From: Candidatus Latescibacterota bacterium
GTDB taxonomy: Bacteria; Latescibacterota; UBA2968; UBA8231
Direction of reading: 5' to 3'
Length of the DNA stretch: 64,000 nt
Assembly (NCBI GenBank): GCA_964291625.2
Contig: OZ220089.1
Location: 3,520,001 to 3,584,000 of the forward strand
Shown: piece after piece, positions 2,329 to 57,209 of the stretch
Layout: the number at the start of each line of letters is the position of its first letter
Position numbering within the stretch: the stretch's first letter is position 1
Translations under genes and position numbers: made by a program
The notes under the pieces: model-generated
Told to the model about the DNA's origin: nothing
Seen by the model: only the letters and a program-made list of their open reading frames with translations
The model's database searches: none

Positions 2329-3173
2329 TCGTCGCTCTCCCGGCCGCCGCGGCGGCGCACCCGCAGCAGCAGGTCTCGCAGGTGGGGCGCGGCGGCGGCC
2401 ATGTAGACAGGGAACTTGCGGCTGCGGTCGTAGGTCGGCTCGCGGCCGTCGCCGAGAAAGCAGCAGGCGCCGGCTTCCTCGGCGATCAGGGAGGGTGGTC
2501 CCACGTCGTAGACCTCGACCTGCCGCGTGAGGTAGGCGGCGAGGTCGCCCTCGGCGAGCCGGGTCAGCACGAGGGCGGCCCCCATGGGGTAGTCGAGGGG
2601 CTCCAGATGCTCCCGGGCGGCGGCCCGGTAGCGCCGCGCCTTGGTGGAGACGAAGGCCTTCTTCGTGCGCGGCCTCTCCGGCAGACGCAGCGGCTTCGGG
2701 GCCCCCGTCCCGACCTGGACCCAGGCGCCGCGGCCGCGCACCGCGGTGAACAGCTTGTCCTCCGTGGGGCGGGCGACGGCGGCGGCGATCATGTACCCGG
2801 CGCGGGCCAGGCCGATGCAGATGTGGTACGGGGCGTCGCCGCGCTGGAAGTGGAGGGTGCCGTCGATGGGATCGAGGATGACCACCTCGTCGCCGCCGTT
2901 GCCGGCGAAGGCGCGGCGCATGGCGGTGCGCTCCTCGGCGATGCAGCGCACCCGGGGGAAGCGGGCGTGGACGGCGCCCAGGATGAGATCCTGAAAGGCG
3001 GAGTCGAGGACGGTGAGCGCCCCCGAGGCCTGCTGCGCTCGGGACCCGGTGAGAGAGGTGTCGGCCTTCTTGCCCACGTCGGCCACGGCGCCGTGGAAAG
3101 GCCGCGACGCGGCGGCGCACTGGCGGACCACGGGCAGGACCGCGTCCAGGAACCGCTGGGGCTGGATGGCCAT
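2325..3173 (-). CDS. Inositol monophosphatase family protein
   Basis: IAEE, ILDPIDGT and YDVG metal-binding motifs. Confidence 0.9.
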   Translation of the reverse strand: MAIQPQRFLDAVLPVVRQCAAASRPFHGAVADVGKKADTSLTGSRAQQASGALTVLDSAFQDLILGAVHARFPRVRCIAEERTAMRRAFAGNGGDEVVILDPIDGTLHFQRGDAPYHICIGLARAGYMIAAAVARPTEDKLFTAVRGRGAWVQVGTGAPKPLRLPERPRTKKAFVSTKARRYRAAAREHLEPLDYPMGAALVLTRLAEGDLAAYLTRQVEVYDVGPPSLIAEEAGACCFLGDGREPTYDRSRKFPVYMAAAAPHLRDLLLRVRRRGGRESDE

Positions 3174-3207
3174 TCCGATCACATCCGGTCCGGCCGAGGG
3201 GCTCGCC

Positions 3208-5517
3208 TCAGCCGGCGGCCTCCGGCCAGCTCCGGGGCTGCAGGGCCTGCATCACCTTGTCCGGGCTCATGGGCAGCTCCGTCAGCCGTTCGCCGATGGC
3301 GTCGGCCACGGCGTTGGCGATCGCCGCCAGGGGCGGCACCAGCGGCACCTCGCCGACACCGCGGATGCCGTGGGGCGAGGCGGGGTTGGGCACCTCCACG
3401 AGGATCGTCTCCACCAGGGGCAGGTCGAGGGTGGTGGGCATCCGGTAGTCGAGGAAGGTGGGGTTGGCCATGGAGCCGTCCTCGTTGTAGAAGTAGCCCT
3501 CGGTGAGGGCCCAGCCGATCCCCTGGACGACGCCGCCCTGGATCTGGCCCTCCACGTAGCTCGGGTGGATGGCCTTGCCGACGTCCTGCACCGCGGTGTA
3601 GCGCAGGACCGCCACCTTGCCGGTCTCGGGGTCGACCTCGACATCGACGACGTGGGCGGCGAAGGCGCTGCCGGGGCCCGAGGCGTTGACGGCGCCCGCC
3701 CCCTCGATGGGACCGCCGGTCGAGCCCTGGTCGGCGGCGACCTCGGCGAAGGTGAGCTTCTTCGACGGGTCCGACTTGCAGACGAAGACGGCTCCCTCGC
3801 GCCACTCCACGTCGCCTTCGTCGACCTCCAGCTGCCGGGCGGCGCGCTCGCACATCTTCTGCTTGGTGTCCTCCGCCGCCAGGAAGCAGGCGTGGCCCGT
3901 GGCGTAGCAGACGCGGCTGCCCCCGGTGCCGTCGTGGTAGCCGATGGAGTCGGTGTCGACGACGGCGGGATTCACGTGGCCCACGTCGACCCCCAGGGCC
4001 TCGGCGACGATCATGGCCATGGCGGCCCGTGAGCCGCCGATGTCGGCGGAGCCTTCCTCCAGGCTGACCATGCCGTCGGTGTGGACGTGGATGTTGGCCG
4101 ACGACTGGCCGCCGCCGTTGAACCAGAAGCCTCCGGCCACCCCGCGTCCGGTGAAGGGGCCCTCGGGCTTGGGGCTGCGGTAGTGCTCGGACTCGAGGGC
4201 GGCGGTGACCGTCTCCTCGCAGCCGATGCGGTTGTAGACCGTGCCGTCGGCGCGGCGGGTGCCCTCGCGGGAGGAGTTCTTCAGGCGCAGCTCGAGGGGA
4301 TCCATGCCGATGAGCCCGGCCAGCTCGTCGAGGATCGACTCCGAGGCGTGGGCGGCGTTGGGGGCGCCCGGGGCCCGGTAGGCGGTGGACTTGGGTTTGT
4401 TGAGGACCACGTCGAGGGCGTCGATGCGCACGTTGGGGATGTCGTACGGCGCGAAGATGCACGAGGCGCCGGCGCCGACGGCCGAGCCGGGGAAGGCGCC
4501 GGCCTCGTAGGCCATCCACGCCTCGGCGGCGGTCAGGGTGCCGTCGCGGCGGACGCCCATCTTGCAGCGGACGACGCCGCCGGGCGCGGGCCCCGACCCC
4601 TCGAAGACCTCGGCCCGGGACATGGTCATCTTCACCGGCCGTCCGGTCTTGTGGGACATGACCGCCGCCGCCGGCTCCATGTAGATGGGGAACTTGCCGC
4701 CGAAGCCGCCGCCGATCTCGCAGGGGATGACCTTCACCTTGCCGATGGGCACGTGCAGGACCTCGGCCACCTGGGAACGGATCTGGAAGGGGCCCTGGGT
4801 GCTGACCCAGACGGTGATCGAGCCGTCCTGCTTCCACAGGACGGTGGTGTTGTGGGGCTCGATGTAGCCTTGGTGCACGGTGGCGGTGCGGAACTCGCGC
4901 TCGACGATCTCGTCGGCCTCGGCGAAGCCGGCCTCCACGTCCCCCAGCTCCTGGCGGTTGTGGGAGGCGATGTTGCTGCTGCGGTCGGTGCTCTCCCCCA
5001 AAAGGCGGGTGGTGCGGTTCTCGTCCAGCAGCGGCGCGTCTTCCTTCATCGCCTCGAGGATATCGACCACCGCCAGCAGAGGCTCGTAGTCGACCTCGAT
5101 CAGCTCGAGGGCTTCCTCGGCGATGTGGGGGCTGGTGGCGGCCACGGCGGCCACCGCATGTCCCTTGTAGAGCACCTTGCCCGAGGCCAGGGAGTTGGAG
5201 GCGACCTCGCGGATGTTGACCAGGGTCTCGCCGATGTCGGAGAGCTTGTCGACGGTCTCCACCAGGTCGTCGGCGGTGGCCACGGCGCGCACGCCTTCCA
5301 GCTGCAGGGCCCGCGAGGTGTCGATGCCGCGGATGCGGGCGTGGGCGTGGGGCGAGCGCAGCATCTTGCCGTAGAGGACGTCGGCGGGGCGCACGTCGGC
5401 GCCGTACACGGCGCGGCCGGTGACCTTGTCCTCCCCGTCGTGGCGGATCGGGCGGGTGCCGATGACCCGGAACTTGCCGCCGCTGGTGTATTCGGGGTAC
5501 GCAGGGTTGGTGGACAT
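3208..5517 (-). CDS. Xanthine dehydrogenase/CoxL family molybdopterin-binding subunit
   Basis: Start MSTNPAYP after AGGAGA; KVTGRAVY, RSPHAHA, GGGFGGK, AYRAPG, GQIQGG and RGVGEVP motifs. Confidence 0.93.
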   Translation of the reverse strand: MSTNPAYPEYTSGGKFRVIGTRPIRHDGEDKVTGRAVYGADVRPADVLYGKMLRSPHAHARIRGIDTSRALQLEGVRAVATADDLVETVDKLSDIGETLVNIREVASNSLASGKVLYKGHAVAAVAATSPHIAEEALELIEVDYEPLLAVVDILEAMKEDAPLLDENRTTRLLGESTDRSSNIASHNRQELGDVEAGFAEADEIVEREFRTATVHQGYIEPHNTTVLWKQDGSITVWVSTQGPFQIRSQVAEVLHVPIGKVKVIPCEIGGGFGGKFPIYMEPAAAVMSHKTGRPVKMTMSRAEVFEGSGPAPGGVVRCKMGVRRDGTLTAAEAWMAYEAGAFPGSAVGAGASCIFAPYDIPNVRIDALDVVLNKPKSTAYRAPGAPNAAHASESILDELAGLIGMDPLELRLKNSSREGTRRADGTVYNRIGCEETVTAALESEHYRSPKPEGPFTGRGVAGGFWFNGGGQSSANIHVHTDGMVSLEEGSADIGGSRAAMAMIVAEALGVDVGHVNPAVVDTDSIGYHDGTGGSRVCYATGHACFLAAEDTKQKMCERAARQLEVDEGDVEWREGAVFVCKSDPSKKLTFAEVAADQGSTGGPIEGAGAVNASGPGSAFAAHVVDVEVDPETGKVAVLRYTAVQDVGKAIHPSYVEGQIQGGVVQGIGWALTEGYFYNEDGSMANPTFLDYRMPTTLDLPLVETILVEVPNPASPHGIRGVGEVPLVPPLAAIANAVADAIGERLTELPMSPDKVMQALQPRSWPEAAG

Positions 5518-5566
5518 CGTTCTCTCCTGGGAAGGGGCGCGGGAGGTGCCGCGCGAAGAGCGAGCT

Positions 5567-5595
5567 ACGGTAGGCAGGCCCCGGATTCCTGTCAA
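5567..5595 (-). promoter_or_regulatory. Sigma70-like promoter for the Mo-hydroxylase gene
   Basis: TTGACA-17 nt-TACCGT on the minus strand. Confidence 0.55.
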
Positions 5596-5670
5596 CGAGA
5601 GGGAGGGGGCGTGCACCGGAACCGGGAGGCCTGCTTGTTCCCGGCGGCCGAGGCGGTTTTCCTCAGAGCC

Positions 5671-6399
5671 ATGAACTGGGAGACGGCGCCGGTCCCTCCG
5701 GCCCTCGGCGCGGGCGAGGTCCACGTGTGGCGGGTCCACCTCGGGATCGCCGGCGCCTGCGGGGATCCCCCGGACGAGGCCGCCCTCGCCGCCGAGGAGC
5801 GGGAACGTGCCTCGAGCTATCCCGCCGGCGAGCCCCGGCGCCGCTTCCTGACCTCCCGCGCGAGACTGCGGTCCCTGCTGTCCGGCTACCTGGGCGCCGC
5901 CCCCCGCGAGGTCCGGCTGGCCTACGGGGAGCAGGGCAAGCCCTCCCTTCGCGAGCCGGCCGCGGACCTCACCTTCAACCTCTCCCACTCGGGGGACCTG
6001 CTGCTGCTGGCCTTCGGCCGCGGACGGGAGCTGGGCATCGACGTGGAGCGGACGGGGCGCGACGTGGCCTGGGAGCGGGTGGCGCGGCGGTTCTTCGAGA
6101 GGCGGGAGCTGGAGGCCCTGCGGAGCCTGCCCGCGGCGGAGCGCCGGGCCGCCTTCTTCCGCTGCTGGACCCGCAAGGAAGCGTTCGTGAAGGCCACCGG
6201 CCGCGGCGTCACCCAGGGCCTGCGGAGCTTCGCCGTCTCCCTGGACCCGGCCGCCGCCGCCCTGACCTGGATCCAGGGCGGGGACCCCGCCGACTGGGGC
6301 ATGGCCGATGTCGACGCCGGGCCGGGGCACGCCGCCGCCGTGTGCGCCGCCGGACGCGGCTGGTCGCTCCGCTGCTTCGAGCCGGCGCCGGCCAGCTAG
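5671..6399 (+). CDS. Sfp/HetI-type 4'-phosphopantetheinyl transferase
   Basis: GKP, FNLSHSG, LGIDVE and WTRKEAFVKATG motifs. Confidence 0.93.
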   Translation: MNWETAPVPPALGAGEVHVWRVHLGIAGACGDPPDEAALAAEERERASSYPAGEPRRRFLTSRARLRSLLSGYLGAAPREVRLAYGEQGKPSLREPAADLTFNLSHSGDLLLLAFGRGRELGIDVERTGRDVAWERVARRFFERRELEALRSLPAAERRAAFFRCWTRKEAFVKATGRGVTQGLRSFAVSLDPAAAALTWIQGGDPADWGMADVDAGPGHAAAVCAAGRGWSLRCFEPAPAS

Positions 6400-7145
6400 A
6401 GCATCAGCACCCGGTGGACCCCGCGCAGGTCCATCTCGAACTCGATCTCCTCCACGGGGGGGCGCGTGTGGTGCCAGTGGATGCCCAGGCGCCGGGCGGG
6501 GCCGATGCGCTGGAGCAGGACCTCCTCGAGGAAGCCGTCCAGGGGATGGACGGTGTAGACGTTCACCTGGTCCACCAGGTCCCAGCCGGCGCCGAGCCCC
6601 TGCAGCCGCTGCTCCATCGCGTCCATGACGCACGCCGCCTTGTCGCGCATCCCGTCCCCGGAGGTGTCGCCGCGGCGGACGATGGCCGCTGCCTCCAGGG
6701 CGCTGCCGCGCAGCTCTCCGGCTCCCGCAACGACCAGCGACGGGGCGAGCCCGGCGGCGGCCGGAGCGGTATGGGAGAAGGCGAACATGCACGGCTCCCG
6801 GGGCGGCTCGTGGGACGGGGCCACGTTGGTGCGGGCCACCGGGTTGAGGCCGTCGATGAGCAGGTCCCACTCGGCGAGCAGGCGGCGGTACCCGTCGTTG
6901 AAGCGGATGAAGCCCTCGATGCTGTAGGGCTTCGGGCAGCGCAGCTGCACGCCGCACAGGGCCGACCGGTCGAGCCCCTCTTCGGCGAGGTGCGCCTCCA
7001 CGCGCTCGAAGCCGAGGCGCCAGGGCGGCTGGTCGCGCAGGATCACGTGGACGATCTCGAAACCCGGGTCGGCGATCACCCCCGAGGAGTAGGGATCGAT
7101 GCCTTTCAGGAAGTGGTAGTGGCCGGCCGGGTTGGGCAGCAGCAT
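6396..7145 (-). CDS. CnbZ/RidA-like deaminase family protein
   Basis: YHFLKGIDPYSSGVIADPGFEI, NPVARTNVAP and EFEMDLRG resemble 2-amino-5-chloromuconate deaminase CnbZ. Confidence 0.7.
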   Translation of the reverse strand: MLLPNPAGHYHFLKGIDPYSSGVIADPGFEIVHVILRDQPPWRLGFERVEAHLAEEGLDRSALCGVQLRCPKPYSIEGFIRFNDGYRRLLAEWDLLIDGLNPVARTNVAPSHEPPREPCMFAFSHTAPAAAGLAPSLVVAGAGELRGSALEAAAIVRRGDTSGDGMRDKAACVMDAMEQRLQGLGAGWDLVDQVNVYTVHPLDGFLEEVLLQRIGPARRLGIHWHHTRPPVEEIEFEMDLRGVHRVLML

Positions 7146-7293
7146 GGTCTGAGGACTCCGGATCGGGGTGCGAATCTCGAGGCGGTGCGAGAGAGTTGCC
7201 GAATCTATGGGAGGCCGAGGCGGCGGCTCAAGATCTCCCCCGGCCCTATATTCGCCCGCTTCGACGACCGTGACGTGAGGAGATGAGAGACCG

Positions 7294-8250
7294 ATGCCCT
7301 GGCGAATCCTGATGCAGTCGGACGTGGAACCCTACGAGACGGTCATGCGCCTGCTGGATGAGGCCGGCTGCGAGCTGGACTGGTGGCGCGAGCCCGAGCC
7401 GCCGCCCGGCGTCGATTACGGCGCCATCGAGGGCATCTACGTGTACAGTCACATGTGGGTGAGCAAGGAACTGATGGCCCGCTGCCCGAACCTGAAGATC
7501 GTCAGCAACTTCGGCGTCGGCTGCGACCACATCGACCTGGAGGGCGCCCGCTCCCTCGGCCTGCCGGTGGGCAACACCCCGGGCGTGCTCGACGCGGCCA
7601 CCGCCGACCTGACCTGGACCCTGCTGCTGGCGGCGGCGCGCAACGCCATCCGCGGCGACCACTTCGCCCGCGGCCCGGAGTTCACCCACTACGACGCCGC
7701 GATCCTCCTCGGCCAGCAGGTGACCGGGGCCGCCCTCGGCATCGTCGGCCTCGGCCGCATCGGCTACCAGGTCGCCCGGCGGGCGGCGGGCTTCGACATG
7801 GAGATCCTCTACCACAACCGCAACCGCAACGAGCGCGCCGAGCGGGAGCTGGGCGCCCGCTACCTGTCCCTCGACGAGCTGCTGGAGCAGTCCGACTTCG
7901 TCACCCTCAACTGCCCCCTCACGGAGGAGACCCGCGGCCTCATCGGCTCCCGCGAGATCGGGCTCATGAAGCCGACGGCGGTCCTCGTCAACGCCGCCCG
8001 GGGCCCGGTCTGGGACCAGGAGGCGGTCCTCGAGGCCCTGCGCGCCGGGCACCTGCACGCCGCCGCCACCGACGTGACCGACCCGGAGCCGCTGCCGCGC
8101 GACCATCCCCTGCTGGCGCAGGAGAACCTGGTGATCTTCCCGCACCTGGGGTCGGCCACCCGCCAGACCCGGGACGCCATGTCGACCATGTCCGTGGACA
8201 ACCTGGTGGCGGGGCTCGAAGGGCGGGAGGTGCCTTACCGGATCGCGTAG
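7294..8250 (+). CDS. D-2-hydroxyacid dehydrogenase (glyoxylate/hydroxypyruvate reductase-like)
   Basis: GIVGLGRIG, VNAARG, DVTDPEP and PHLGSAT motifs. Confidence 0.93.
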   Translation: MPWRILMQSDVEPYETVMRLLDEAGCELDWWREPEPPPGVDYGAIEGIYVYSHMWVSKELMARCPNLKIVSNFGVGCDHIDLEGARSLGLPVGNTPGVLDAATADLTWTLLLAAARNAIRGDHFARGPEFTHYDAAILLGQQVTGAALGIVGLGRIGYQVARRAAGFDMEILYHNRNRNERAERELGARYLSLDELLEQSDFVTLNCPLTEETRGLIGSREIGLMKPTAVLVNAARGPVWDQEAVLEALRAGHLHAAATDVTDPEPLPRDHPLLAQENLVIFPHLGSATRQTRDAMSTMSVDNLVAGLEGREVPYRIA

Positions 8251-8300
8251 CTTGGTACCGAATCATTGAGATCTTACTGAGTCGGGAGGCTAATCGGCCA

Positions 8301-8822
8301 ATGAGCCCAAGAAGAAGGAAACCGAACCCGAGCTTCATGCGGCCTCTGCAGCCTGATGCAGTCTTGGGTGCAATCGTCGGGCATGAACCCATGCCACGAA
8401 CCGAGGTTGTAGTACGGCTCTGGTCATACATTAAAGTGAATAGGCTCCAGGACAGTCGGAACAAACGGATGGTAAAGGCTGATAGAAAGCTCGGACCGCT
8501 GTTCGGTGGAAAGAGCGAAGTCAGCATGTTTGAAGTGACGCGACTCGTGTCGTTGCACCTGCGTGCCCTCTCGCATGCAGAACAGCAAGTCTACGATGCT
8601 GCTGGAGAGAAGCGAGAGCTATCTCGATCATATCGCCTATTGGGCTGTTCGCCAGACGCTTCAGATGACGACCTGAGGCAACGCTATCGTGACTTGTGCC
8701 GACAGTATCATCCCGATCGTGTAAGTTCTCTGGGACCTGAGCTAGTCGAGCTCGCAACCGAGAAATTCCAGGAGATCCAATATGCCTACGACCTTGTCTT
8801 GTCAGACCGACAGGATGGGTGA
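8301..8822 (+). CDS. SWIB/MDM2 domain + DnaJ J-domain fusion protein
   Basis: GGAGG RBS; N-terminal FMRPLQPD..PRTEVVVRLWSYIK..LQD..VSMFEVTRLVSLHL (SWIB); C-terminal YRLLG..YHPDRV..KFQEIQYAY (J domain, HPD intact). Confidence 0.88.
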   Translation: MSPRRRKPNPSFMRPLQPDAVLGAIVGHEPMPRTEVVVRLWSYIKVNRLQDSRNKRMVKADRKLGPLFGGKSEVSMFEVTRLVSLHLRALSHAEQQVYDAAGEKRELSRSYRLLGCSPDASDDDLRQRYRDLCRQYHPDRVSSLGPELVELATEKFQEIQYAYDLVLSDRQDG

Positions 8823-8920
8823 GGCTTTGGCCGGTGCCTCTATGGCTGAACAGGTCCATGGGACACAGCTATGCACAGTGTGCGCGAATGTGAATGATGC
8901 TCTGCTACGGATATCGGGGG

Positions 8921-9692
8921 ATGGTCAAGGTGGTGGCTTTGCACGATGATGCACTGAGATTGGCAGAACTTGATCGACAGGTAGTTCAAGCTATCGTCGA
9001 TGGACATATTGAAAGTTTGTTTTCTGTGCTGGAGGCGTACCTGGAACTGAAGGCAAGTCTTCAGCAGCGACTTCTGGATGAATCGGCTATATCGGTTCAA
9101 GATGCAGAAGCGCGGGAGGTTCTTCGCAAAATTGGCGGAAACGATGGTTTTCGGTCGGACGAAATTGTCGAGCGAATCAAGGCCCGTACGGGCGAGGACT
9201 TGGCGGCTGAGGGATTCGAGGACGCGGACCTTGAGAGGTTGGGCTCCGATCTATTCTACTCCTGGTATAGTCACGAAGAGTACGTGAGAGCACTTCGCGA
9301 GTTGCGACCGCTGATCTTGGGATGCAACACCTCGGAAAGCGTAATCCGACTGGTAGAGCAGATCAAGCGGTGCTATGCCTTTCAGCAATATGACGCAGCG
9401 TTCGGATTGTGCCGGACTGTACTTGAGGCAAGTATTCGAGACATATGCGTTCGGCAAGGACTATTCCCTAACCGGAAGGAAAGCGCCGTACTCTACGATA
9501 AGATCTACTGGTGGAAGTTGCGCAACGTCGTGTCCTCTGGACACCTCAATGAGACCTTAGAAGATCTGTTCGGGCGCCTCTCCAAGGTGTTGCACGCGCG
9601 GAGAACGGTAGGGGCCAACGAGGCCCGTGAAGTCTTCGAGGAGACAGTATTTGGTTATTGAGAAGCTCTACGAATTCCACAACCTCCGATGA
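8921..9692 (+). CDS. DUF4145/HEPN-like protein; apparent +1 frameshift near 9650 (as written it stops at 9661)
   Basis: YAFQQYDAAFGLCRTVLEASIRD helix and R-LSKVL-H motif; removing one T gives ..ETVLVIEKLYEFHNLR*. Confidence 0.65.
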
Positions 9693-9743
9693 GTTTGGAT
9701 CAATCCCAAATGAGCCCACCCACATCAGTGAGCAAACATTAGA

Positions 9744-10685
9744 ATGCCAGAGAACGCCCACTACGACGTCCTGATCATCGGTTCCGGCCCGGCCGGGTTC
9801 ACCGCCGCCGTGTACGCGGCGCGGGCGGACCTGGCGCCGCTGGTGCTGGAAGGCATGCAGCCCGGCGGGCAGCTGACGATCACCACCGACGTGGAGAACT
9901 ACCCCGGCTTCCCCGAGGGGATCATGGGGCCCGAGATGATGGACAAGTTCCGCGAGCAGGCCCAGCGGTTCGGCGCCACCACTCTCTTCCGGACCGCCAC
10001 CGAGGTCGACCTCTCCAAGCGCCCCTTCGCGGTGAAGGCCGAGGACCGGAGCTTCACCGCCGATGCGGTGATCATCGCCACGGGCGCCTCGGCGCGGCTC
10101 CTCGGCATCGAGTCGGAGACCCGGCTCATGGGCCACGGCGTGTCGGCATGCGCCACCTGCGACGGCTTCTTCTTCCGCGACAAGGAACTGGTCGTGGTCG
10201 GCGGCGGCGACTCGGCCATGGAGGAGGCCACCTTCCTGACCAAGTTCGCCACGCGGGTGAGCATCGTGCACCGGCGCGCCGAGTTCCGGGCCTCGAGGAT
10301 CATGCTCCACCGGGCCGAGGAGAACGAGAAGATCGACTTCGTCACGCCGGCCGTGGTGGAGGAGATCCTGTCACCCGACGGCGAGCTGGAGGTCAGCGGC
10401 GTGCGCCTGAGCAATCCGGAGACAGGCGAGACCTGGGAGCACCCGTGCCAGGGGGTGTTCATGGCCATCGGCCACATACCGAACACCCAGCTCTTCGAGG
10501 GCGTCCTCGAGATGGACGAGAACGGCTACCTGAGCACGGCCCCCGACTCGACGCGGACCAACGTCGAAGGCGTATTCGCCTGCGGCGACGCCCAGGACCA
10601 CGTCTACCGGCAGGCGGTGACCGCCGCCGGCACGGGATGCATGGCCGCCATCGAGGCCGAGCGCTGGCTGGGGGAGCGGAGCTGA
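9744..10685 (+). CDS. trxB: Thioredoxin-disulfide reductase
   Basis: GSGPAG, VENYPGF, CATCDG and [10 protein letters not shown] motifs. Confidence 0.97.
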
Positions 10686-10710
10686 GCGGCTGAAAGCCCG
10701 GCCGCAGCTC

Positions 10711-12150
10711 CTACAGCGCCGCGAACACCTCGCGCCCGCGGCGGAAGAGGTCGCGCACTTCCTCGCGCTGACCGTCCGTGTCGTAACGGCCCACCGAATC
10801 GATCCAGCGCAGAGACTCGTCGATCGAGTCGAGGAAGAAGCGGGCGTCCCCGGGGCGCGCTTCGGACGGCCTTCCGCAGGTGAAGTAGGTGGGACTGGTG
10901 TGGGCGTAGACGGCCTGGTCGAAGCTGTCCCGGGCGTCCCCCCACAGGCGGGCGGCCACCCAGCCATCGCGCTCGGCGGCGACCTCGCAGCGCACCGTGC
11001 CGGCCCTCTCGCCCTCGGGGAACCCCTGGCGGTGGACGACGGCGCCGTCCACCACGACCTCGGCGGCCACCACCGGGTAGTGGGAGGCGAAGGTGACCTC
11101 CACCTCCAGGCGGCCGCCGCTGTCGAGGAGCAGGGTGGAGCCGAGGCCGGCGCCGTTGACGGTCATGTCGAGGGCGGGGCCGTTGGTGACGTAGGTGCGC
11201 CCCTGCTTCATGCCGTCGATCCACGCGGCGTAGGAGAACTCCTCCTCCACCTGCACGTAGACGCGGTTGTTGGAGCAGACGAACCAGTCGGTCCCCGTCG
11301 ACGCCGGCAGCTTCATCCCGCAGTTGAGGAGCTTGTACCAGAGGTCGTACTCCGGGTCCATCCAGAAGGGGTCGAAGAGGTTGAAGGCGTCGAGCTTGCC
11401 GAGGGCGGCGGCCACGGGGGCCTCCATGCCGCGGCCGTTGTGGCACCAGATGACCAGGCCGCCCTGGTCGCGGGCGTCGTCGCAGCAGAAGCACAGGGGC
11501 GGGTAGTCGGGGTCGAACTGGGCGGTGAGGATGTGGCCGCGGCTCACCGGCTGCACGAGGTTGCGGATGTTGAGGAACATGACGTGGCCGTAGCCGAAAC
11601 CCCAGGGCGACTTCTCCCCGTAGTGGCGGTTCTCCTCGCCGATGTCGAGGACGTGATGGGCGGTGGTGAACTCGTTCATCACGCCGATGGGGTACTTGTT
11701 GCTCGCGTACGGAAGCTGGCGCCGGTCGAGGACGGAGACGCAGGTGACGTTGTAGCCCTCCACCGAGCAGTCGACGCCGAGGCGCTCGTCGGGGCGCGTC
11801 TCCTTCTCGTCGTAGTGGATGTGGGTGTTGCCGGGGTACCAGTTCGAGGCCTGCGGATGGTGCCAGCGCTCCAGGGAGACCTCCACCTCGGCGACGCCGG
11901 CCTCGGGCGTCTCCACGGTGACGCGGCGGGGCCGGTACTCGGTGCCGCGCTCGACGAGGACGTCGGTGCGCCCGCGGCCGACGTTCACCTCGAACTGGCC
12001 GTCGGCGAAGAAGAAGGGAGTGCCGGGGCCGCGCTTCAGCAGCGCTCCGGCGGGGTGGTGGAAGCCGCCCGTCGGTCCGAGGACGTGGACCTTGGCGTCG
12101 ATGGGCTCGTTGGTGGCGGCGTCGACGATGGTGCCGTGGAGTGTGGCCAT
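10711..12150 (-). CDS. CehA/McbA-family (PHP-like) metallohydrolase
   Basis: Start MATLHG; ERGTEY, GNTHIH, WYKLLNCG..ASTGTD, GRTYVTNGP and AHTSP motifs. Confidence 0.8.
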   Translation of the reverse strand: MATLHGTIVDAATNEPIDAKVHVLGPTGGFHHPAGALLKRGPGTPFFFADGQFEVNVGRGRTDVLVERGTEYRPRRVTVETPEAGVAEVEVSLERWHHPQASNWYPGNTHIHYDEKETRPDERLGVDCSVEGYNVTCVSVLDRRQLPYASNKYPIGVMNEFTTAHHVLDIGEENRHYGEKSPWGFGYGHVMFLNIRNLVQPVSRGHILTAQFDPDYPPLCFCCDDARDQGGLVIWCHNGRGMEAPVAAALGKLDAFNLFDPFWMDPEYDLWYKLLNCGMKLPASTGTDWFVCSNNRVYVQVEEEFSYAAWIDGMKQGRTYVTNGPALDMTVNGAGLGSTLLLDSGGRLEVEVTFASHYPVVAAEVVVDGAVVHRQGFPEGERAGTVRCEVAAERDGWVAARLWGDARDSFDQAVYAHTSPTYFTCGRPSEARPGDARFFLDSIDESLRWIDSVGRYDTDGQREEVRDLFRRGREVFAAL

Positions 12151-13262
12151 CAGTTCAGCTCGTAGCTCTCGTAAGGGCGTTCGCAGGGGTTGCCGCGGCT
12201 CAGGTGCATGCGCCCGGCGCCGGCCTCGACGACGAGGGACCAGACGCTGGTCCAGTACCCGGTGACCGGGTCGTCGTTGGCGTGGCGGCAGATCGAGCGC
12301 GGGTGGTCCTGGTGGTCGCTGAGGATCTCCTGCAGCCGCTGACGGGTCACCGGCCGGGGGCAGGCGGCCAGCAGCTCGTCGACGCGGCACAGGCGGGGGC
12401 CGGACTCGATGAGCTCGGGGAAGTCGCGGTTGATCGGCGCCAGGTCGGGATGCACGCAGTGGTTGGTGTGGGTCACGACGCCGTCGCCGTCGTCGTCGCG
12501 CAGGACGTGCACGTTGTCGACCGTGACCTCCAGGTCGGCCGGCCCTTCCGGCGTCGACAGCAGGATGTTGGCGGGGATGGCGCGCCGGGCCCGGGAGACG
12601 GCGTCCACCGCCTCTTCCAGGGAGCGGGCCTCGTAGATGCCGCGCACGGTGAAGTAGTGGGGCACCCCGTAGCGGCGGGCCGGGGCCGGCAGGGTGTTCA
12701 TGCAGACGCCGATGCCGGCCTCGCTCACGCCGAGGTAGGCGATCAGCCCCGCCTGGGTGACACTCATGAAGGCCGGGGCGTCGTCGGGCCGGCGGGTCAG
12801 CACGACGGTGAAGGGGTCGAGGGCCGGGTCGTTGTCCCAGTTCTGTCCGGCCACGCCTCCGTCGCCGGTGATCTCGGCGCTCAGGGCGAAGGCGGTGCAC
12901 CCGGAGTCGGCGGGCGCCATGCCGCGGCCCCGGCCCGAGTCCGGCTGCAGCTGGTTGCGGATCTGCAGCAGCATCAGCGCCTCCACGGAGACGCCGCAGG
13001 CCCGGCTCATGCCCTCCAGCTCGGCCAGCATGTGGGGCGCGTACCCGCGCGCGTCGTCGACGCAGCGCCTCGCCACCTCCAGGGCGCGCTCCCGGGAGAC
13101 GTCCACGCTCAGGCGCACGCGCTCCAGGGCGATGGCGTCGAAGCCGCGGATCTCCTCGCCCAGGGCCTCGCCGATCTGCTCGCCCATGGCCGCCGGCGAG
13201 CCGGCTACGGTGAGCTCGGGGTAACGGGTGGCCGCCGCGGCGGCCGGTGCGGTCGCGGTCAT
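12150..13262 (-). CDS. C45 family Ntn-hydrolase/acyltransferase
   Basis: GCTAF nucleophile site, GQNWD and HTNH; start overlaps the upstream stop. Confidence 0.88.
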   Translation of the reverse strand: MTATAPAAAAATRYPELTVAGSPAAMGEQIGEALGEEIRGFDAIALERVRLSVDVSRERALEVARRCVDDARGYAPHMLAELEGMSRACGVSVEALMLLQIRNQLQPDSGRGRGMAPADSGCTAFALSAEITGDGGVAGQNWDNDPALDPFTVVLTRRPDDAPAFMSVTQAGLIAYLGVSEAGIGVCMNTLPAPARRYGVPHYFTVRGIYEARSLEEAVDAVSRARRAIPANILLSTPEGPADLEVTVDNVHVLRDDDGDGVVTHTNHCVHPDLAPINRDFPELIESGPRLCRVDELLAACPRPVTRQRLQEILSDHQDHPRSICRHANDDPVTGYWTSVWSLVVEAGAGRMHLSRGNPCERPYESYELN

Positions 13263-25435: not shown

Positions 25436-26350
25436 CTACCTGAAGCTGGCCTTGATGCGCGCCCAGGAGGACGGCTCCACGGCGGAAACGTCGTCGTAGC
25501 GGGAAGGGTCTTCCCCGGCGCCGACGAGCAGGCCGTCGGAGAAGAGATCCGCGTTGATCATCTCTTGCCATTTGCCGGAGAGGGAAATCCTCACGTCGAC
25601 CGCTCCACTGCGATCATGGTCTCGCATGGACATCGAGAACCCGATGACCTTGCCGGGGTAGAGGTCGGAGGCCGTGGACGCCTCCTCGTCGTTGTAGATG
25701 AGGTCGTCGAAGGGAGTCAGCATGAACTCGGTGACCGAGGTCGCGGGACTCTCGCCGATGACCCCGCCCCCCGCCGCGGCATACGGCTCCCGGATCACCC
25801 AGTCGCTGGCGCCGTCGTAGTCCAGGATGTCGCCGTCGCCGGGCGCCTCGGCGATCGCCATCCACCGCTGCGCCTGACGGTGGTTCCACAGGACTTGGTC
25901 CGCTGTACACTCCTCGCAGTTGATCCCCAGCAGTTCGCCGTAGATCCCGCCGGTGTGGTCGCCGTCGACCATGAAGGCGATGCTGGAGTCCCAGCGGTGC
26001 ATCTCGTGGAGGCCGGCCCCGTCGTAGCGGTTGAGGTAGAGATCATCGAAGCGCTCCATAGCGACCCAGAGGGTACCGCTGCTCTCGTTCCAGGCGAGCC
26101 AGATGCGGAAGTCCAGGTTCGAGGGATCGTAGGCACCGAACAGCCAGAAGAAGTCGCTGGCCGTCAGGGAGGGGTCGCCGAGGACGTCGTACCAGTCCTC
26201 GACGCTGCCGTCGGTCAGGTCGATGCGGTCGAGATCTTCGTCGCGCAACTCGAAGAAGGGATAAATCTCGTCGCCCACGTGGGCGTAAGCGGCGGGGGGC
26301 GGGCCCAGGAGTGCGGCGAGGCCCAGCAGGGAGATGAGTCGAGTGTGCAT
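25436..26350 (-). CDS. Secreted CBM9/DOMON-like protein, paralogue 1, with SWxRIK tail
   Basis: Signal peptide (AYA-H); DGSVEDW, LAWN..LWVAMERFDD, WDSSIAFMVDGD; ends VEPSSWARIKASFR. Confidence 0.75.
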   Translation of the reverse strand: MHTRLISLLGLAALLGPPPAAYAHVGDEIYPFFELRDEDLDRIDLTDGSVEDWYDVLGDPSLTASDFFWLFGAYDPSNLDFRIWLAWNESSGTLWVAMERFDDLYLNRYDGAGLHEMHRWDSSIAFMVDGDHTGGIYGELLGINCEECTADQVLWNHRQAQRWMAIAEAPGDGDILDYDGASDWVIREPYAAAGGGVIGESPATSVTEFMLTPFDDLIYNDEEASTASDLYPGKVIGFSMSMRDHDRSGAVDVRISLSGKWQEMINADLFSDGLLVGAGEDPSRYDDVSAVEPSSWARIKASFR

Positions 26351-26368
26351 GGGGTGTTCCTGCTCAGG

Positions 26369-27283
26369 CTATTCCAGCGCGGCCTTGATCCGCCCCCAGG
26401 AGGACGGCTCGACGGCGGAAACGTCGTCGTAGCTGGATGGCTCCTCTCCGGCGCCGACGAGCAGGCCGTCGGAAAAGAGATCCGCGTTGATCATCACGCC
26501 CGACCAGCGGGTGAGCGCCACAATCACATCGAAGGCCTCACCGCCGTCATAGTCCCACATGGACATCGAGAATCCGATGACCTTGCCAGGGAACAGTTGA
26601 GAGGCCTCGGACCTTTCCTCGTCGTTGTAGATGAGATCGTCGAAGGGCGTCAACATGAACTCGGTGACCGAGGTCGCGGGGCTCTCGCCGATGACGCCGC
26701 CCCCCGCCGCGGCATAGGGCTCCCGGATCACCCAGTCGCTGGCGCCGTCGTAGTCGAGAATGTCGCCGCCGCCGGGGGCCTCGGCGATCGCCATCCACCG
26801 TTGCGCCTGGCGGTGGTTCCCCAGAACCTGCTCCGGTGTGCATTGCTCGCAGCCGATGCCGAGCAACTCCCCGTATTTCCCGGCGGTGTGGTCACCGTCG
26901 ACCATGAAAGCGATGCTGGAGTCCCAGGTCACCATCTCGTGGAGTCCGGCCCCGTCGTAGCGGTTGAGGTAGAGATCGTCGAAGCGCTCCATGGCGACCC
27001 AGAGGGTACCGCTACCCTGGTGCCAGGCGAGCCAGATGCGGAAGTCCAGGTCCGAGAGATCGTACGAATCGAAGAGCCAGAAGAAGTCGCTGGCCGTCAG
27101 GGAGGGCTCGCCGATGACCTCGAGCCAATCCTCGACGCTACCGTCGGTCAGGTCGATCTGGTCCAGATCTTCGTCGAGGAGCTCGTAGAAGGGGTAGATC
27201 TGGTGGCCGACGTGGGCGTGGGCGGAGCCGGCGAGACCCAGGAACTGGACCAAGGTCAGGAGAGCAACGAGCATCGTCGGCAT
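26369..27283 (-). CDS. Secreted CBM9/DOMON-like protein, paralogue 2
   Basis: AAGGAG RBS; signal peptide; highly similar to paralogue 1; ends VEPSSWGRIKAALE. Confidence 0.78.
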   Translation of the reverse strand: MPTMLVALLTLVQFLGLAGSAHAHVGHQIYPFYELLDEDLDQIDLTDGSVEDWLEVIGEPSLTASDFFWLFDSYDLSDLDFRIWLAWHQGSGTLWVAMERFDDLYLNRYDGAGLHEMVTWDSSIAFMVDGDHTAGKYGELLGIGCEQCTPEQVLGNHRQAQRWMAIAEAPGGGDILDYDGASDWVIREPYAAAGGGVIGESPATSVTEFMLTPFDDLIYNDEERSEASQLFPGKVIGFSMSMWDYDGGEAFDVIVALTRWSGVMINADLFSDGLLVGAGEEPSSYDDVSAVEPSSWGRIKAALE

Positions 27284-27338
27284 GGTGTATCTCCTTGGTG
27301 AAGCGGAGTCCCGCGAGTGGGTCTGCGCTCTCGACCGG

Positions 27339-28254
27339 CTACTTGAAACTGGCCTTGATCCGCCCCCAGGAGGACGGCACGACGGCGGAGACATCGTCGT
27401 AGCGGGAGGGGTCTTCTCCGGCGCCGAGGAGCAGGCCGTCGACGAAGAGATCGGCGAAGCGGACGGCCGCCCCCCTGTCGCCGAGCCACTGAAGGTCTGC
27501 CGGCCCCAATCCGTCGGCATACTCGGTGGCGTCGTTATCGATCGTGCTGATGGTGAAGCCGATGACCTTCCCCGGATACAGTACGGAGGCTTTCGAGGCG
27601 GCCTCGTCGTCGTAGACGAGGTCGTCGAAGGGGGTCACCTTCAGCTCGGTGACCGTGGTCACGGGGGTGGCGCCGAGCACGCCGCCCCCGGCCGCGGCGT
27701 ACGGCTCCCTCACGGCCCACTCGCTGGCGCCGTCATAGGCCACTTGTCCGCCCTCCGCCGTCTCGGCGATCGCCATCCAGTGCTGGGCCTGGCGGTTGTT
27801 CTGGAGCTTGGCCTCCTCACCGAACAGGTACCGGCCGCCAGAGTGATCGCCGTCGACCACGAAGCTGAAGTAGGAGTCCCAGCGGTTCATCGTGGAGAAT
27901 CCCGACTGGTCAATCTCCCCTGCATAGTTGTTGTGATAGATGTCATCGAAGCGTTCCATGGCGACCCAGAGGGTCCCGCTTCGTCGGTGCCAGCCAAGCC
28001 AGAAACGGTTGTCGCAGTTCGTTGGATCGTAGCTGGAGTACGGGTAGTAGAAGTCGGCGGCCGTCAGTGAGGGCTCACCGAGGACGTCGTGCCAGTCCTC
28101 GACGCTGCCGTCGGTCAGGTCAATGCGGTCGAGATCTTCGTCGAGAAGCTCGTAGAAGGGGTAGATCTCGTCGCCGATGTGGGCGTGGGCGCCGGGTGCG
28201 ATCGCCAGGACCGGCGCCATGGCCAGGGTCAGCAGGCCGATGGCAGGTCCGCAT
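27339..28254 (-). CDS. Secreted CBM9/DOMON-like protein, paralogue 3 (extra base near 28245 in the signal peptide)
   Basis: GGAGG RBS and ATG at 28254; removing one base gives MRTAIGLLTLAMAPVLAIAPGAHA; ends VVPSSWGRIKASFK. Confidence 0.72.
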
Positions 28255-45405: not shown

Positions 45406-46245
45406 TCAGGGGGAGGCCTCGACCTCGGGATCGACAGCCTCCTTGGCCTCGCCCCAGCTCCGAGCGGGTTCGCCCGGCAACGCGGCGTCCATCTTTGCGG
45501 CGGGGAACGGCCCCGACCCGGAGCGGACGCGGATCATCTCCCCCCCTTCGAGACTGTCGGGGTCACCGATCTCGATCTCCAGGGCACCGTCCGGGAGACC
45601 CAGCGGCGCCCGGTCCTGGTTCACGTCGACGGTGACGACCCGATCCCCGCTCCCATCCAGCGTTTCCGTGACCTGGACCAACTCCAACTTGCGCACGCCG
45701 TCATCGGCCCCATCGTCCTCGACCACCAGGATGACCCCGTCCTCGGTCTCCACCGCTTCCCTGATCTCGACGGGCTCGCCGTCGATGGTCATGCTGATCC
45801 GCTGCAGGAGGCTGCCGGCGACCTCGGCGATCGCCGCCCTCTGGCTGGCGGCCCCGGCCAGCAGGACCGCTGCGGCGGCGAGCGCGGCGGCGAGGGCGCG
45901 CGGACGCCAGCGCTGCCGGCGGTGCGGCCCGGAGGTCGAACCCGGAACCCGCGGTGAGCCGTTGCCGGAGAGGACCGGGGCCGCCTCGCGCACAGAACCC
46001 ACGTCATCGCTCCGGCCCCCGAGGCGGGCGGCCAGGGCCCGGTTGGCGTCCAGGAGCAGGTCCGCGGGATAGCTGGACTCGCGGATCGACCGCCCGGCCG
46101 CACTCAACAGGGCCAGGTCTCCTCTGAGCCCGGCGGTCTCCGGGTGGGCACGCAAGTACTCCTCGACCTCCCTGCGCTCGGCCTCGGGCAGCTCGCCGTC
46201 GAGGTACTCGATCAGTCTGTCTTGGAACTGGCTGGTGGTGATCAT
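45406..46245 (-). CDS. Putative anti-sigma factor (ASD-like N-terminus, TM, extracytoplasmic domain)
   Basis: LIEYLDGEL..ERREVEEYL; Ala-rich TM; coupled to the ECF sigma gene. Confidence 0.75.
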   Translation of the reverse strand: MITTSQFQDRLIEYLDGELPEAERREVEEYLRAHPETAGLRGDLALLSAAGRSIRESSYPADLLLDANRALAARLGGRSDDVGSVREAAPVLSGNGSPRVPGSTSGPHRRQRWRPRALAAALAAAAVLLAGAASQRAAIAEVAGSLLQRISMTIDGEPVEIREAVETEDGVILVVEDDGADDGVRKLELVQVTETLDGSGDRVVTVDVNQDRAPLGLPDGALEIEIGDPDSLEGGEMIRVRSGSGPFPAAKMDAALPGEPARSWGEAKEAVDPEVEASP

Positions 46246-46763
46246 CTGCAGGCCTCCTTCTCGGCGTTTGTCGCTTCGGGGAAGTCGTCGGCTGAGAGCT
46301 GCTGGCGGATCTGTCTCGCGGCCTGAAAGGCGGCGGCCCGAGCCGCGCCCTCGGAGCAGTCGAGGATCCGGGCGATCTGCTCGAAGGAGCAGCCTTGGAA
46401 GTACCTCAGAACGAAGACCTCTCTGCGGCGCCCGGGCAGGTCCAGGGCGAGGCGCCGGATGGCGTCGACCATCAGCCCTCTCTCGACCGCATCCTCGGAC
46501 TCCCGGCAGTGAGGTTCCTCCGCCACTTCCGTCCACGGCCGCAGGCGGGCCCGCTGGCGGCTGAAGTCGATGGCGGCATTGATCGCCGTGCGGCACAGCC
46601 ACGCCTTGGGCTGTTGCAGAGGGCCGGCCTCGCCGGTGGTGACATGGAACTTGACGAACACCTCCTGGTAGAGATCGGCGGTCTCCTCCCGGTTCTGGTT
46701 GATCCGCCAGATCAGGCTCATGACCAGGGGACCGTACCTCTCGAGTGCCTGTTCTACGTGCAT
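46242..46763 (-). CDS. ECF RNA polymerase sigma factor
   Basis: ADLYQEVFVK, AWLCRTAINAAID and LPGRRREVFVLRY..SFEQIA motifs. Confidence 0.9.
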   Translation of the reverse strand: MHVEQALERYGPLVMSLIWRINQNREETADLYQEVFVKFHVTTGEAGPLQQPKAWLCRTAINAAIDFSRQRARLRPWTEVAEEPHCRESEDAVERGLMVDAIRRLALDLPGRRREVFVLRYFQGCSFEQIARILDCSEGAARAAAFQAARQIRQQLSADDFPEATNAEKEACR

Positions 46764-46919
46764 CCCATCTCCCTGGTGAGGGGGAACGAAGGAATCCCGT
46801 TCGGCCACACCCATAGAACGACGCAGGGCACGGTTTGTTACTTCGGCGAAGGGACGATTTCCGCCGGATCCACCCTCGGGAGGTCTCCACGACTCATGAG
46901 CTTTCTCTCGTGGGGAACC

Positions 46920-46948
46920 TGCTATCATTGGAGCATCAGTTGATAGCA
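46920..46948. promoter_or_regulatory. Inverted repeat, probable TA autorepression operator
   Basis: TGCTATCA-N13-TGATAGCA directly upstream of the antitoxin gene. Confidence 0.6.
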
Positions 46949-47214
46949 TGGAGCTACACGAGGTGGTCCGAACACAGATCCAGCTGACCGAAGATCAGGC
47001 GCGGCAGGTCAAGCGGATCGCCGCCGAGCAGGGGGTCTCGATGGCGGCGGTGATTCGCCAAGGGGTGGACCTCCTGCTGCACTCGGCGGAGACGGCCGTC
47101 AGCGATGACGATCGCGCAACCCGGGCGATCGCGGCGGCCGGCCGGTTCCGTTCCGGGGGCGGCGACGGAGCCGTGGCGCACGACCGCCACCTGCGGGACG
47201 CCTACCGCGGGTGA
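46948..47214 (+). CDS. CopG/RHH antitoxin (alternative GTG start at 46963)
   Basis: VRTQIQLT..GVSMAAVIR..GRFRSG..HDRHL. Confidence 0.85.
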   Translation: MELHEVVRTQIQLTEDQARQVKRIAAEQGVSMAAVIRQGVDLLLHSAETAVSDDDRATRAIAAAGRFRSGGGDGAVAHDRHLRDAYRG

Positions 47215-57197: not shown

Positions 57198-57209
57198 GGG
57201 AATAGCGCC

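Follow-up and report, generated by a model that had tools for sequence, protein, structure and literature searches.

Why do two genes of foreign composition stand side by side in a GC-rich chromosome, and do they work together? This question is raised by a short islet of low guanine-plus-cytosine (GC) content in a Candidatus Latescibacterota bacterium (GenBank assembly GCA_964291625.2, contig OZ220089.1, positions 3,520,001 to 3,584,000; this whole stretch of 64,000 nucleotides (nt) is called the window throughout). Gene 1 encodes a SWIB domain followed by a J domain (SWIB-J) and gene 2 a putative relative of the DUF4145/HEPN proteins. A preliminary description of the sequence had proposed that together they form a chaperone-controlled defence or toxin-antitoxin system, with independent acquisition of the two genes as its fallback, and it is the fallback that best fits the evidence of loci, synteny, fusions and neighbours. 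We consider it fairly probable (roughly 0.6) that the islet is a variable slot holding two unrelated and independently acquired genes, with gene 2 standing alone and no conserved two-gene system.

Both the islet and the genes that it carries are confirmed, and their composition is foreign (coordinates of all features are collected in Table 1). GC content is 0.513-0.557 in 300-nt windows over 8200-9699, compared with 0.723-0.737 at 7450-8199 and 0.683-0.703 at 9850-10449. When all 64 kb are scanned in 1-kb windows, it falls below 0.60 in 8001-10000 only and is about 0.70 elsewhere, which bears out the earlier account of a low-GC islet (0.51-0.56 vs. ~0.70) carrying two co-oriented genes between a hydroxyacid dehydrogenase and trxB. 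At third codon positions (GC3), gene 1 has a GC content of 0.555 and gene 2 of 0.584, compared with 0.972 and 0.955 in the flanking genes.

Inheritance of the Two Genes

In the system proposed earlier, SWIB-J and gene 2 would act as a chaperone-coupled defence or toxin-antitoxin module in which DnaK, recruited through the J domain, restrains or frees an HEPN-like effector, much as SecB does in toxin-antitoxin-chaperone (TAC) modules. A scan of genome contigs for gene 2 gave 19 loci, from Latescibacterota, Pseudomonadota, Acidobacteriota, Verrucomicrobiota, Thermodesulfobacteriota, Bacteroidota, Nitrospiria and others, and these are the denominator of the locus counts that follow. A SWIB or J homologue was found within 6 kb at none of the 19 (tblastn, E ≤ 0.01); seen from the gene-2 side, the homologues do not co-occur. 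The neighbouring genes were compared both by Pfam (63 neighbours) and by all-against-all blastp (586 neighbour open reading frames (ORFs)). The Pfam-scanned neighbours are heterogeneous, comprising housekeeping enzymes, TPR/Sel1 proteins, transposases and restriction-modification genes, and no SecB-like or antitoxin family is among them. No recurrent neighbour family emerged from the 586 ORFs: besides generic TPR similarity, neighbour genes are shared only between close genomes, namely by the window and the genome L001 and by L005 and L006. No fusion of SWIB and J with HEPN was detected among longer proteins (3 hits from 1068 candidates), and an indirect check of the eight SWIB-J relatives against the 120 gene-2 relatives listed revealed no apparent shared contig. 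Further points against a module are the absence from gene 2 of the canonical catalytic arginine (see below), the lack of a match of either islet protein to any PADLOC model of known defence systems, and synonymous codon usage that is uncorrelated between genes 1 and 2 (0.25, compared with 0.88 for two host genes). The resemblance to TAC modules goes no further than the notion of a chaperone component that lies beside a putative toxin gene; the islet, however, has no SecB-like protein or antitoxin gene, its component is a J-domain co-chaperone, and the pairing is not conserved. Since genes 1 and 2 are not found as companions at other loci, a two-gene defence system is not demonstrated, and we regard the chaperone-coupled module as very unlikely.

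The comparison with L001, a syntenic Latescibacterota sister genome, points the same way; L001 and L002 are the two loci closest to the window's gene 2 among the 19. In L001 the gene order is dehydrogenase, Sel1-repeat protein, gene 2, trxB, so that gene 2 is present there without SWIB-J. By blastn, window 3393-8252 corresponds to L001 1-4865 (91.7%) and window 8934-10811 to L001 6017-7885 (87.2%), with nothing aligned between them, and the DNA identity of L001 to the window on either side of the slot is 91.7-92.3%. Since homology stops at the dehydrogenase stop (8252) and returns at the gene 2 start codon (8934), SWIB-J lies in a swappable slot of 680 bp. The Sel1-repeat gene that L001 carries instead (4977-5984) encodes 335 amino acids, has a GC content of 0.647 and, by sequence reading, a signal-peptide-like N-terminus. 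We picture the islet as a short, variable slot that precedes the trxB-like gene in a chromosome of Latescibacterota type, and its two genes of foreign composition would have been inherited separately.

TPR genes are common. Apart from L001, a TPR or Sel1 protein occurs close to the gene-2 relative in L009, L011, L017 and L019, so that 5/19 loci have one, which is a lead only. Sel1 is listed among the domains fused to DUF4145 in the accessible part of the HEPN survey (Anantharaman 2013, PMC3710099).

Several observations weigh against independent acquisition of a stand-alone gene 2. Genes 1 and 2 are adjacent on the same strand with 98-110 nt between them and have similar GC and GC3, and the swapped segment ends exactly at the gene 2 start codon, which would place the expression signals of gene 2 within that segment. 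These features, along with the HEPN relationship of gene 2, are what speaks for a module, and SWIB-J and gene 2 could also have been acquired together ancestrally, with later replacement in L001. The other points concern gene 2 by itself. A Foldseek search of its C-terminal domain model against the PDB gave nothing at E ≤ 0.001 (best E 0.72), no gene-2 relatives were found in phage or plasmid collections, and the PADLOC models matched 23 gene-2 relatives only marginally (PD-T7-4 reached E 0.0091 in 1/23). Gene 2 is also only weakly associated with defence genes: defence-type neighbours occur at 3/19 loci (L007 with GmrSD_N/NsnA, L012 and L016), a raw count; a lone DEDDh exonuclease near gene 2 in L010 would make it 4/19.

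Ancestry and Active Site of Gene 2

Gene 2 belongs to a large, unannotated family found in many phyla. A word-indexed search gave 248 hits, typically of 251 amino acids, and an exhaustive profile search 521 representatives at 50% identity (E ≤ 0.001), and a precomputed Pfam domain is recorded for 0/120 of the relatives listed. The window protein itself lies under the detection of the Pfam model for DUF4145 (PF13643): it has no Pfam match at E ≤ 1, PF13643 and PF05168 included, nothing in NCBIfam, no PADLOC match at E ≤ 1 and none in a PDB sequence profile search (best E 0.11).

The relatives, examined in overlapping samples of 37, 115 and 21 members, give a clearer picture. PF13643 matches the C-terminal ~100 residues of 12/37 at E ≤ 0.5, with P0324 reaching 28.8 bits against a cut-off of 23.1. 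At E ≤ 0.01 it matches 17/115 representatives (best 3.1e-8), in addition to two matches to HEPN PF05168, and 13 of the 21 relatives that keep the canonical R-N-H motif. The window clade and this canonical subgroup align over their full length by hhalign (248 columns, probability 100%, E 3.8e-63). In the ESM Atlas, PF13643 is a common family in 25/30 neighbour clusters of gene 2, and the three clusters listed have scores of 0.95-0.96 with PF13643 on 27-42% of members. A model of the C-terminal domain only (predicted local distance difference test score 82.3, predicted template modelling score 0.75) is a helical bundle that superposes best on HEPN proteins, the top TM-scores being those of 2hsb (0.55/0.54) and HepT 7bxo_F (0.48/0.46). 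No significant match was obtained for this domain model in the PDB or among BFVD viral structures, or for the whole gene-2 model, which is uninformative, in the PDB.

The Pfam, hhalign and ESM Atlas results support descent of gene 2 from DUF4145/HEPN stock, DUF4145 having been placed in the HEPN superfamily according to the accessible part of Anantharaman (2013, PMC3710099). The earlier assignment of gene 2 to DUF4145/HEPN holds by descent, through the PF13643 matches of the relatives and the hhalign result, but not as a Pfam match of the window protein. The N-terminal helical domain of about 135 residues matched no Pfam or PDB family; for residues 10-146 the nearest named ESM Atlas clusters are AbiJ_NTD4, AbiJ_NTD3 and Abi_C at 0.75-0.78, leads only. 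A weak DnaJ match (E 0.0022) in 1/115 gene-2 relatives was judged to be chance after the members were checked for the HPD tripeptide.

A second element of the preliminary description was an R-x5-H motif in gene 2. Its sequence, RLSKVLH, is present as described (residue numbers match the ORF at 8894-9661), but Arg228 is an arginine in just 75 of 241 aligned gene-2 relatives, from which all motif-column counts are taken. The position that holds the catalytic Arg of DUF4145, eight residues before the His, is Phe226 in the window and elsewhere mostly Tyr (Y 197, R 23, F 8, H 3, other or gap 10). Judging from these columns, the R-x5-H is coincidental and not the catalytic motif. His234 does belong to the active-site pattern, being His in 235/241 relatives and a gap in the remainder, and the columns R174 (R in 238/241) and E178 (E in 236/241) are almost invariant. 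When the relatives are sorted by the three columns of R-x3-N-x3-H, the states are Y-S-H in 135, Y-C-H in 60, R-N-H in 21, F-S-H in 5 (window included), F-C-H in 3 and other or gapped in 17, a sorting that explains the pattern of DUF4145 matches. The hhalign columns likewise place Tyr/Phe of the window clade opposite Arg of the canonical subgroup, and Ser opposite Asn. With the canonical Arg and Asn both replaced in 203/241 relatives, any activity of gene 2 would use a rewired site, or consist of binding instead of canonical cleavage. In the window clade His234, Arg174 and Glu178 are kept, and Arg and Asn are exchanged for Phe/Tyr and Ser/Cys.

Known proteins offer parallels for such a gene. 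In the accessible text on RAZR, a single DUF4145 protein is described as a self-contained abortive-infection ribonuclease (RNase) with catalytic R146/H154 (PMC13017515). Gene 2 resembles RAZR (PD-T7-4) in being a stand-alone protein of 200-250 amino acids that combines an N-terminal non-catalytic part with a C-terminal DUF4145-type domain and has no partner gene. Among its relatives, 3/240 begin with a Cys4 ribbon (two CxxC within the first 70 residues) and 21/241 keep R-x3-N-x3-H at the RAZR spacing (Arg at His-8). However, the window protein has no CxxC pair and no zinc ribbon, with the ~135-residue helical domain in its place, its catalytic Arg is Phe, and no PADLOC PD-T7-4 match was found for it. 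DUF4145 proteins at large share with gene 2 the homologous C-terminal domain and an occasional restriction-modification neighbourhood, as noted in the accessible part of PMC3710099. There the R...H motif is given as mostly conserved (80%) in DUF4145, whereas it is lost in the window clade, which in this respect resembles the c2405 family of the same survey ('conserved H but lacks R'). AbiJ-type proteins likewise have a helical N-terminal domain followed by HEPN, and AbiJ_NTD5 (E 0.0011) and AbiJ_NTD4 (E 0.0017) are each matched by a single gene-2 relative; all AbiJ signals, however, are under reliable thresholds and the window protein has no Pfam AbiJ match. By analogy with RAZR and the AbiJ-type proteins, gene 2 would most likely work alone, its N-terminal domain serving as a sensor or regulator and its HEPN-like C-terminal domain acting on RNA as a dimer. 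Knowledge of what its rewired site does would widen the range both of HEPN chemistry and of RAZR-type single-protein sensors.

Evolution and Genomic Context of Gene 2

Gene 2 is under purifying selection, yet it evolves fast. Between the window and L001 its protein identity is 73%, compared with 95-97% for the flanking genes. The nonsynonymous substitution rate (dN) is 0.167 and the synonymous rate (dS) 0.47 (dN/dS 0.36); for the flanks dN is 0.016-0.029 and dS 0.10-0.21, so that the dN of gene 2 is 6-10 times theirs. A tree of 14 intact copies, which omits the six partial or broken ones (L004, L010, L011, L014, L015 and L016), groups the window with the two Latescibacterota loci (support 100/98). 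In L002 the gene has a different context and adjoins an IS66 transposase. The distribution of the family is patchy over at least six phyla, and Pseudomonadota need three changes on the tree. The GC content of gene 2 is at least 0.05 under that of every available flank at 11/18 loci, L016 being left out because its match span includes an insertion sequence (IS). An IS or transposase lies beside or inside gene 2 at three loci, and restriction genes lie beside it at three. Together, these patterns suggest that gene 2 is a mobile, conflict-type gene.

A different reading is that the family comprises non-catalytic HEPN-like regulators, or binders of RNA or a ligand, with a host function, which are merely AT-rich and form no conflict system. 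Consistent with such a role are the replacement of both catalytic residues, Arg and Asn, in most relatives, the purifying selection, the mostly housekeeping neighbours, the same position of gene 2 in two genomes and its absence from the phage and plasmid collections. It sits less well, however, with the patchy spread, the low GC relative to the flanks, the mobile elements and restriction genes, the dN excess and the degraded copies in L014, L016 and the window, and on balance we find a host function somewhat unlikely.

Individual loci add some detail. In most of the genomes at the 19 loci, GC-rich or not, the gene-2 relative is poorer in GC than the DNA around it: the values are 0.27 vs. 0.40 in L017, 0.33 vs. 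0.52 in L018 and 0.54 vs. 0.70 in L001, and the low GC of gene 2 has persisted since the split of the window and L001 (~8% DNA difference). In L016 (5050-7395) a gene-2 relative is split by a ~1.6-kb insertion with a DDE_Tnp_1_4 transposase (E 1.8e-160) and is surrounded by two Eco57I-type methyltransferases and a methyl-directed restriction enzyme. The degraded copy in L014 (6001-6403) aligns at residues 4-43 and 157-252 only, which makes an internal deletion likely. In L012 a full-length type III restriction enzyme (2472-5462, PADLOC REase_III E 0) lies ~500 nt upstream of the gene-2 relative (5980-6729), on the same strand.

Gene Model and Frameshift

The preliminary description had reported a frameshift in gene 2, and the DNA alignment with L001 and L002 confirms one extra base. 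It falls ~12 codons ahead of the native stop and costs the last ~13 residues: the window ORF ends ...EETVFGY*, compared with ...ETLxVIExLYxxHxL in family members, and the last helix thereby loses a Glu and a Tyr that are nearly invariant in the family. The extra base, within a T run, could be biological or an error of sequencing or assembly. The window's copy of gene 2 may be inactive. For the annotation of the window, there is no evidence for a two-gene defence system, and gene 2 should be regarded as probably damaged. An upstream ORF with one CxxC (8815-8946) was considered as the lost zinc-ribbon N-terminus of gene 2 and rejected because the family begins M-x-L-x-D-D, which corresponds to window 8933.

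This damage invites the reading that the islet is decaying cargo, with gene 2 a pseudogene, SWIB-J an orphan and neither functional in this genome. Besides the frameshift, the Phe at the Tyr/Arg position, found in only 8/241 relatives (5 F-S-H and 3 F-C-H), and the absence of the window's SWIB-J from the database's predicted proteins would fit decay. On the other hand, gene 2 is otherwise an intact ORF with the dN/dS given above, SWIB-J is intact, keeping its HPD and exceeding the Pfam cut-offs in both domains, and sequencing error could account for one extra base in a T run. We consider decaying cargo unlikely.

The SWIB-J Protein

The SWIB-J architecture described earlier for gene 1 stands, as both domains exceed the Pfam cut-offs: SWIB scores 78.4 bits against 25, over profile positions 2-74 of 74, and the J domain, with its HPD intact, 51.1 bits against 27.8. 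'YHPDR' is present in 9/9 aligned SWIB-J sequences, and CRQYHPDR-like motifs occur in all relatives. The J part also matches the DjlA model (E 3.9e-15, under that model's whole-protein cut-off), a likeness to class III J-domain proteins. The fusion is very rare. A search of 5.8 billion proteins returned only eight (P0124-P0130 and the fragment P0183), and in the phage and plasmid collections there were separate SWIB or J matches only, with no full-length fusion. Full-text literature searches, as far as the texts were accessible, yielded no paper describing a bacterial SWIB-J fusion, and SWIB is unmentioned in the main text of PMC10410713, which surveys some 280,000 J-domain proteins.

The SWIB domain is 66-67% identical to that of SWIB proteins labelled Latescibacterota and Gemmatimonadaceae, including P0176 (67%). 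These bacterial SWIB/MDM2 proteins with Lys/Ala tails differ from gene 1, which has a J domain at its C-terminus instead of the basic tail; the ordinary SWIB proteins of this lineage (e.g., P0176) have a long Lys/Ala-rich N-terminal tail. Gene 1 presumably encodes a rare, specialised class III J-domain co-chaperone that targets DnaK to the partner of its SWIB domain. So rare an architecture could reveal the binding targets of bacterial SWIB domains. P0176 (163 amino acids, encoded outside the window) is an apparent host SWIB protein with a Lys/Ala-rich tail of ~85 residues, read as histone-H1-like, and, given the 67% identity of the two SWIB domains, the foreign SWIB-J could compete with P0176 or act on it. 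In P0345 (631 amino acids), SWIB is fused to ParB-type domains (PF02195 and PF17762), another hint of a chromosome-linked role for bacterial SWIB domains.

A more elaborate coupling of the two genes can be imagined, in which the SWIB domain would anchor SWIB-J to the nucleoid or the host SWIB protein, and SWIB-J would hand the rewired HEPN-like protein to DnaK. The HEPN-like protein would thus stay silent as long as the chaperone is not titrated by infection or stress, and in L001 the Sel1 gene would be a later replacement of the regulator. We hold this coupling to be highly improbable.

Islet and Flanking Genes

Table 1. Features of the islet and its two flanking genes, in window coordinates.
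Feature	Position	Strand	Basis or remark
D-2-hydroxyacid dehydrogenase, flanking host gene	7294..8250	+	Pfam 2-Hacid_dh_C E 7.8e-59; 95% amino acid identity to L001
Low-GC islet	8251..9743	.	dehydrogenase stop to trxB-like start
Variable slot without L001 counterpart	8253..8932	.	blastn; in L001, 1150 bp with Sel1-repeat gene
Gene 1, SWIB-J protein, 173 amino acids	8301..8822	+	SWIB PF02201 and DnaJ PF00226
SWIB domain, residues 15-87	8343-8561	+	PF02201 E 3.5e-22
J domain, residues 111-171	8631-8813	+	PF00226 E 1.5e-13
HPD tripeptide of J domain (H137-P138-D139)	8709..8717	+	sequence reading
Gene 2 ORF	8894-9661	+	opens at ATG 8894; database call from ATG 8921 (246 amino acids, P0004)
Gene 2 start GTG	8933	+	positional equivalent of L001 ATG start
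Gene 2 N-terminal all-helical domain, about residues 14-147	8933..9334	+	model helices
Gene 2 C-terminal DUF4145/HEPN-related domain, about residues 148-255, cut by frameshift	9335..9658	+	PF13643 matches of relatives, hhalign, ESM Atlas
Invariant R174-x3-E178, first long helix of C-terminal domain	9413..9427	+	column counts
Remnant of DUF4145 R-x3-N-x3-H: F226 ... S230 ... H234 (holds R228-H234)	9569..9595	+	column counts, hhalign
RLSKVLH, residues 228-234	9575-9595	+	sequence reading
One-base insertion (frameshift)	9647..9652	+	DNA alignment with L001 and L002
Displaced native gene-2 C-terminus, LVIEKLYEFHNLR then stop	9651..9692	+	+1-frame translation; cf. family consensus LxVIExLYxxHxL
Thioredoxin-reductase-like flavoprotein (pyridine-nucleotide disulphide oxidoreductase), flanking host gene	9744..10685	+	Pfam Pyr_redox_2 E 1e-50; 97% amino acid identity to L001

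The window genes around the islet are metabolic. A look for mobile-element signatures there found none: no tRNA lies within the 64-kb window, and the direct repeats flanking the islet are only 13-14-mers, at chance level. Rfam gave no match within 8000-10000, and neither a sigma-70-like promoter nor an intrinsic terminator was found at 8100-9850. Gene 2 is separated from the trxB-like gene by a spacer (9662-9743; L001 6772-6821) that has a low GC content and is kept in both genomes, so the upstream signals of the trxB-like gene are probably inside the islet. Further out, two minus-strand ORFs at 6396-7145 (249 amino acids) and 10711-12900 (729 amino acids) are kept in L001 and have no Pfam family at E ≤ 1e-5. 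Weaker dips in GC content (0.65-0.665 vs. the usual ~0.70) occur at 26001-28000, 46001-47000 and 56001-58000 of the window.

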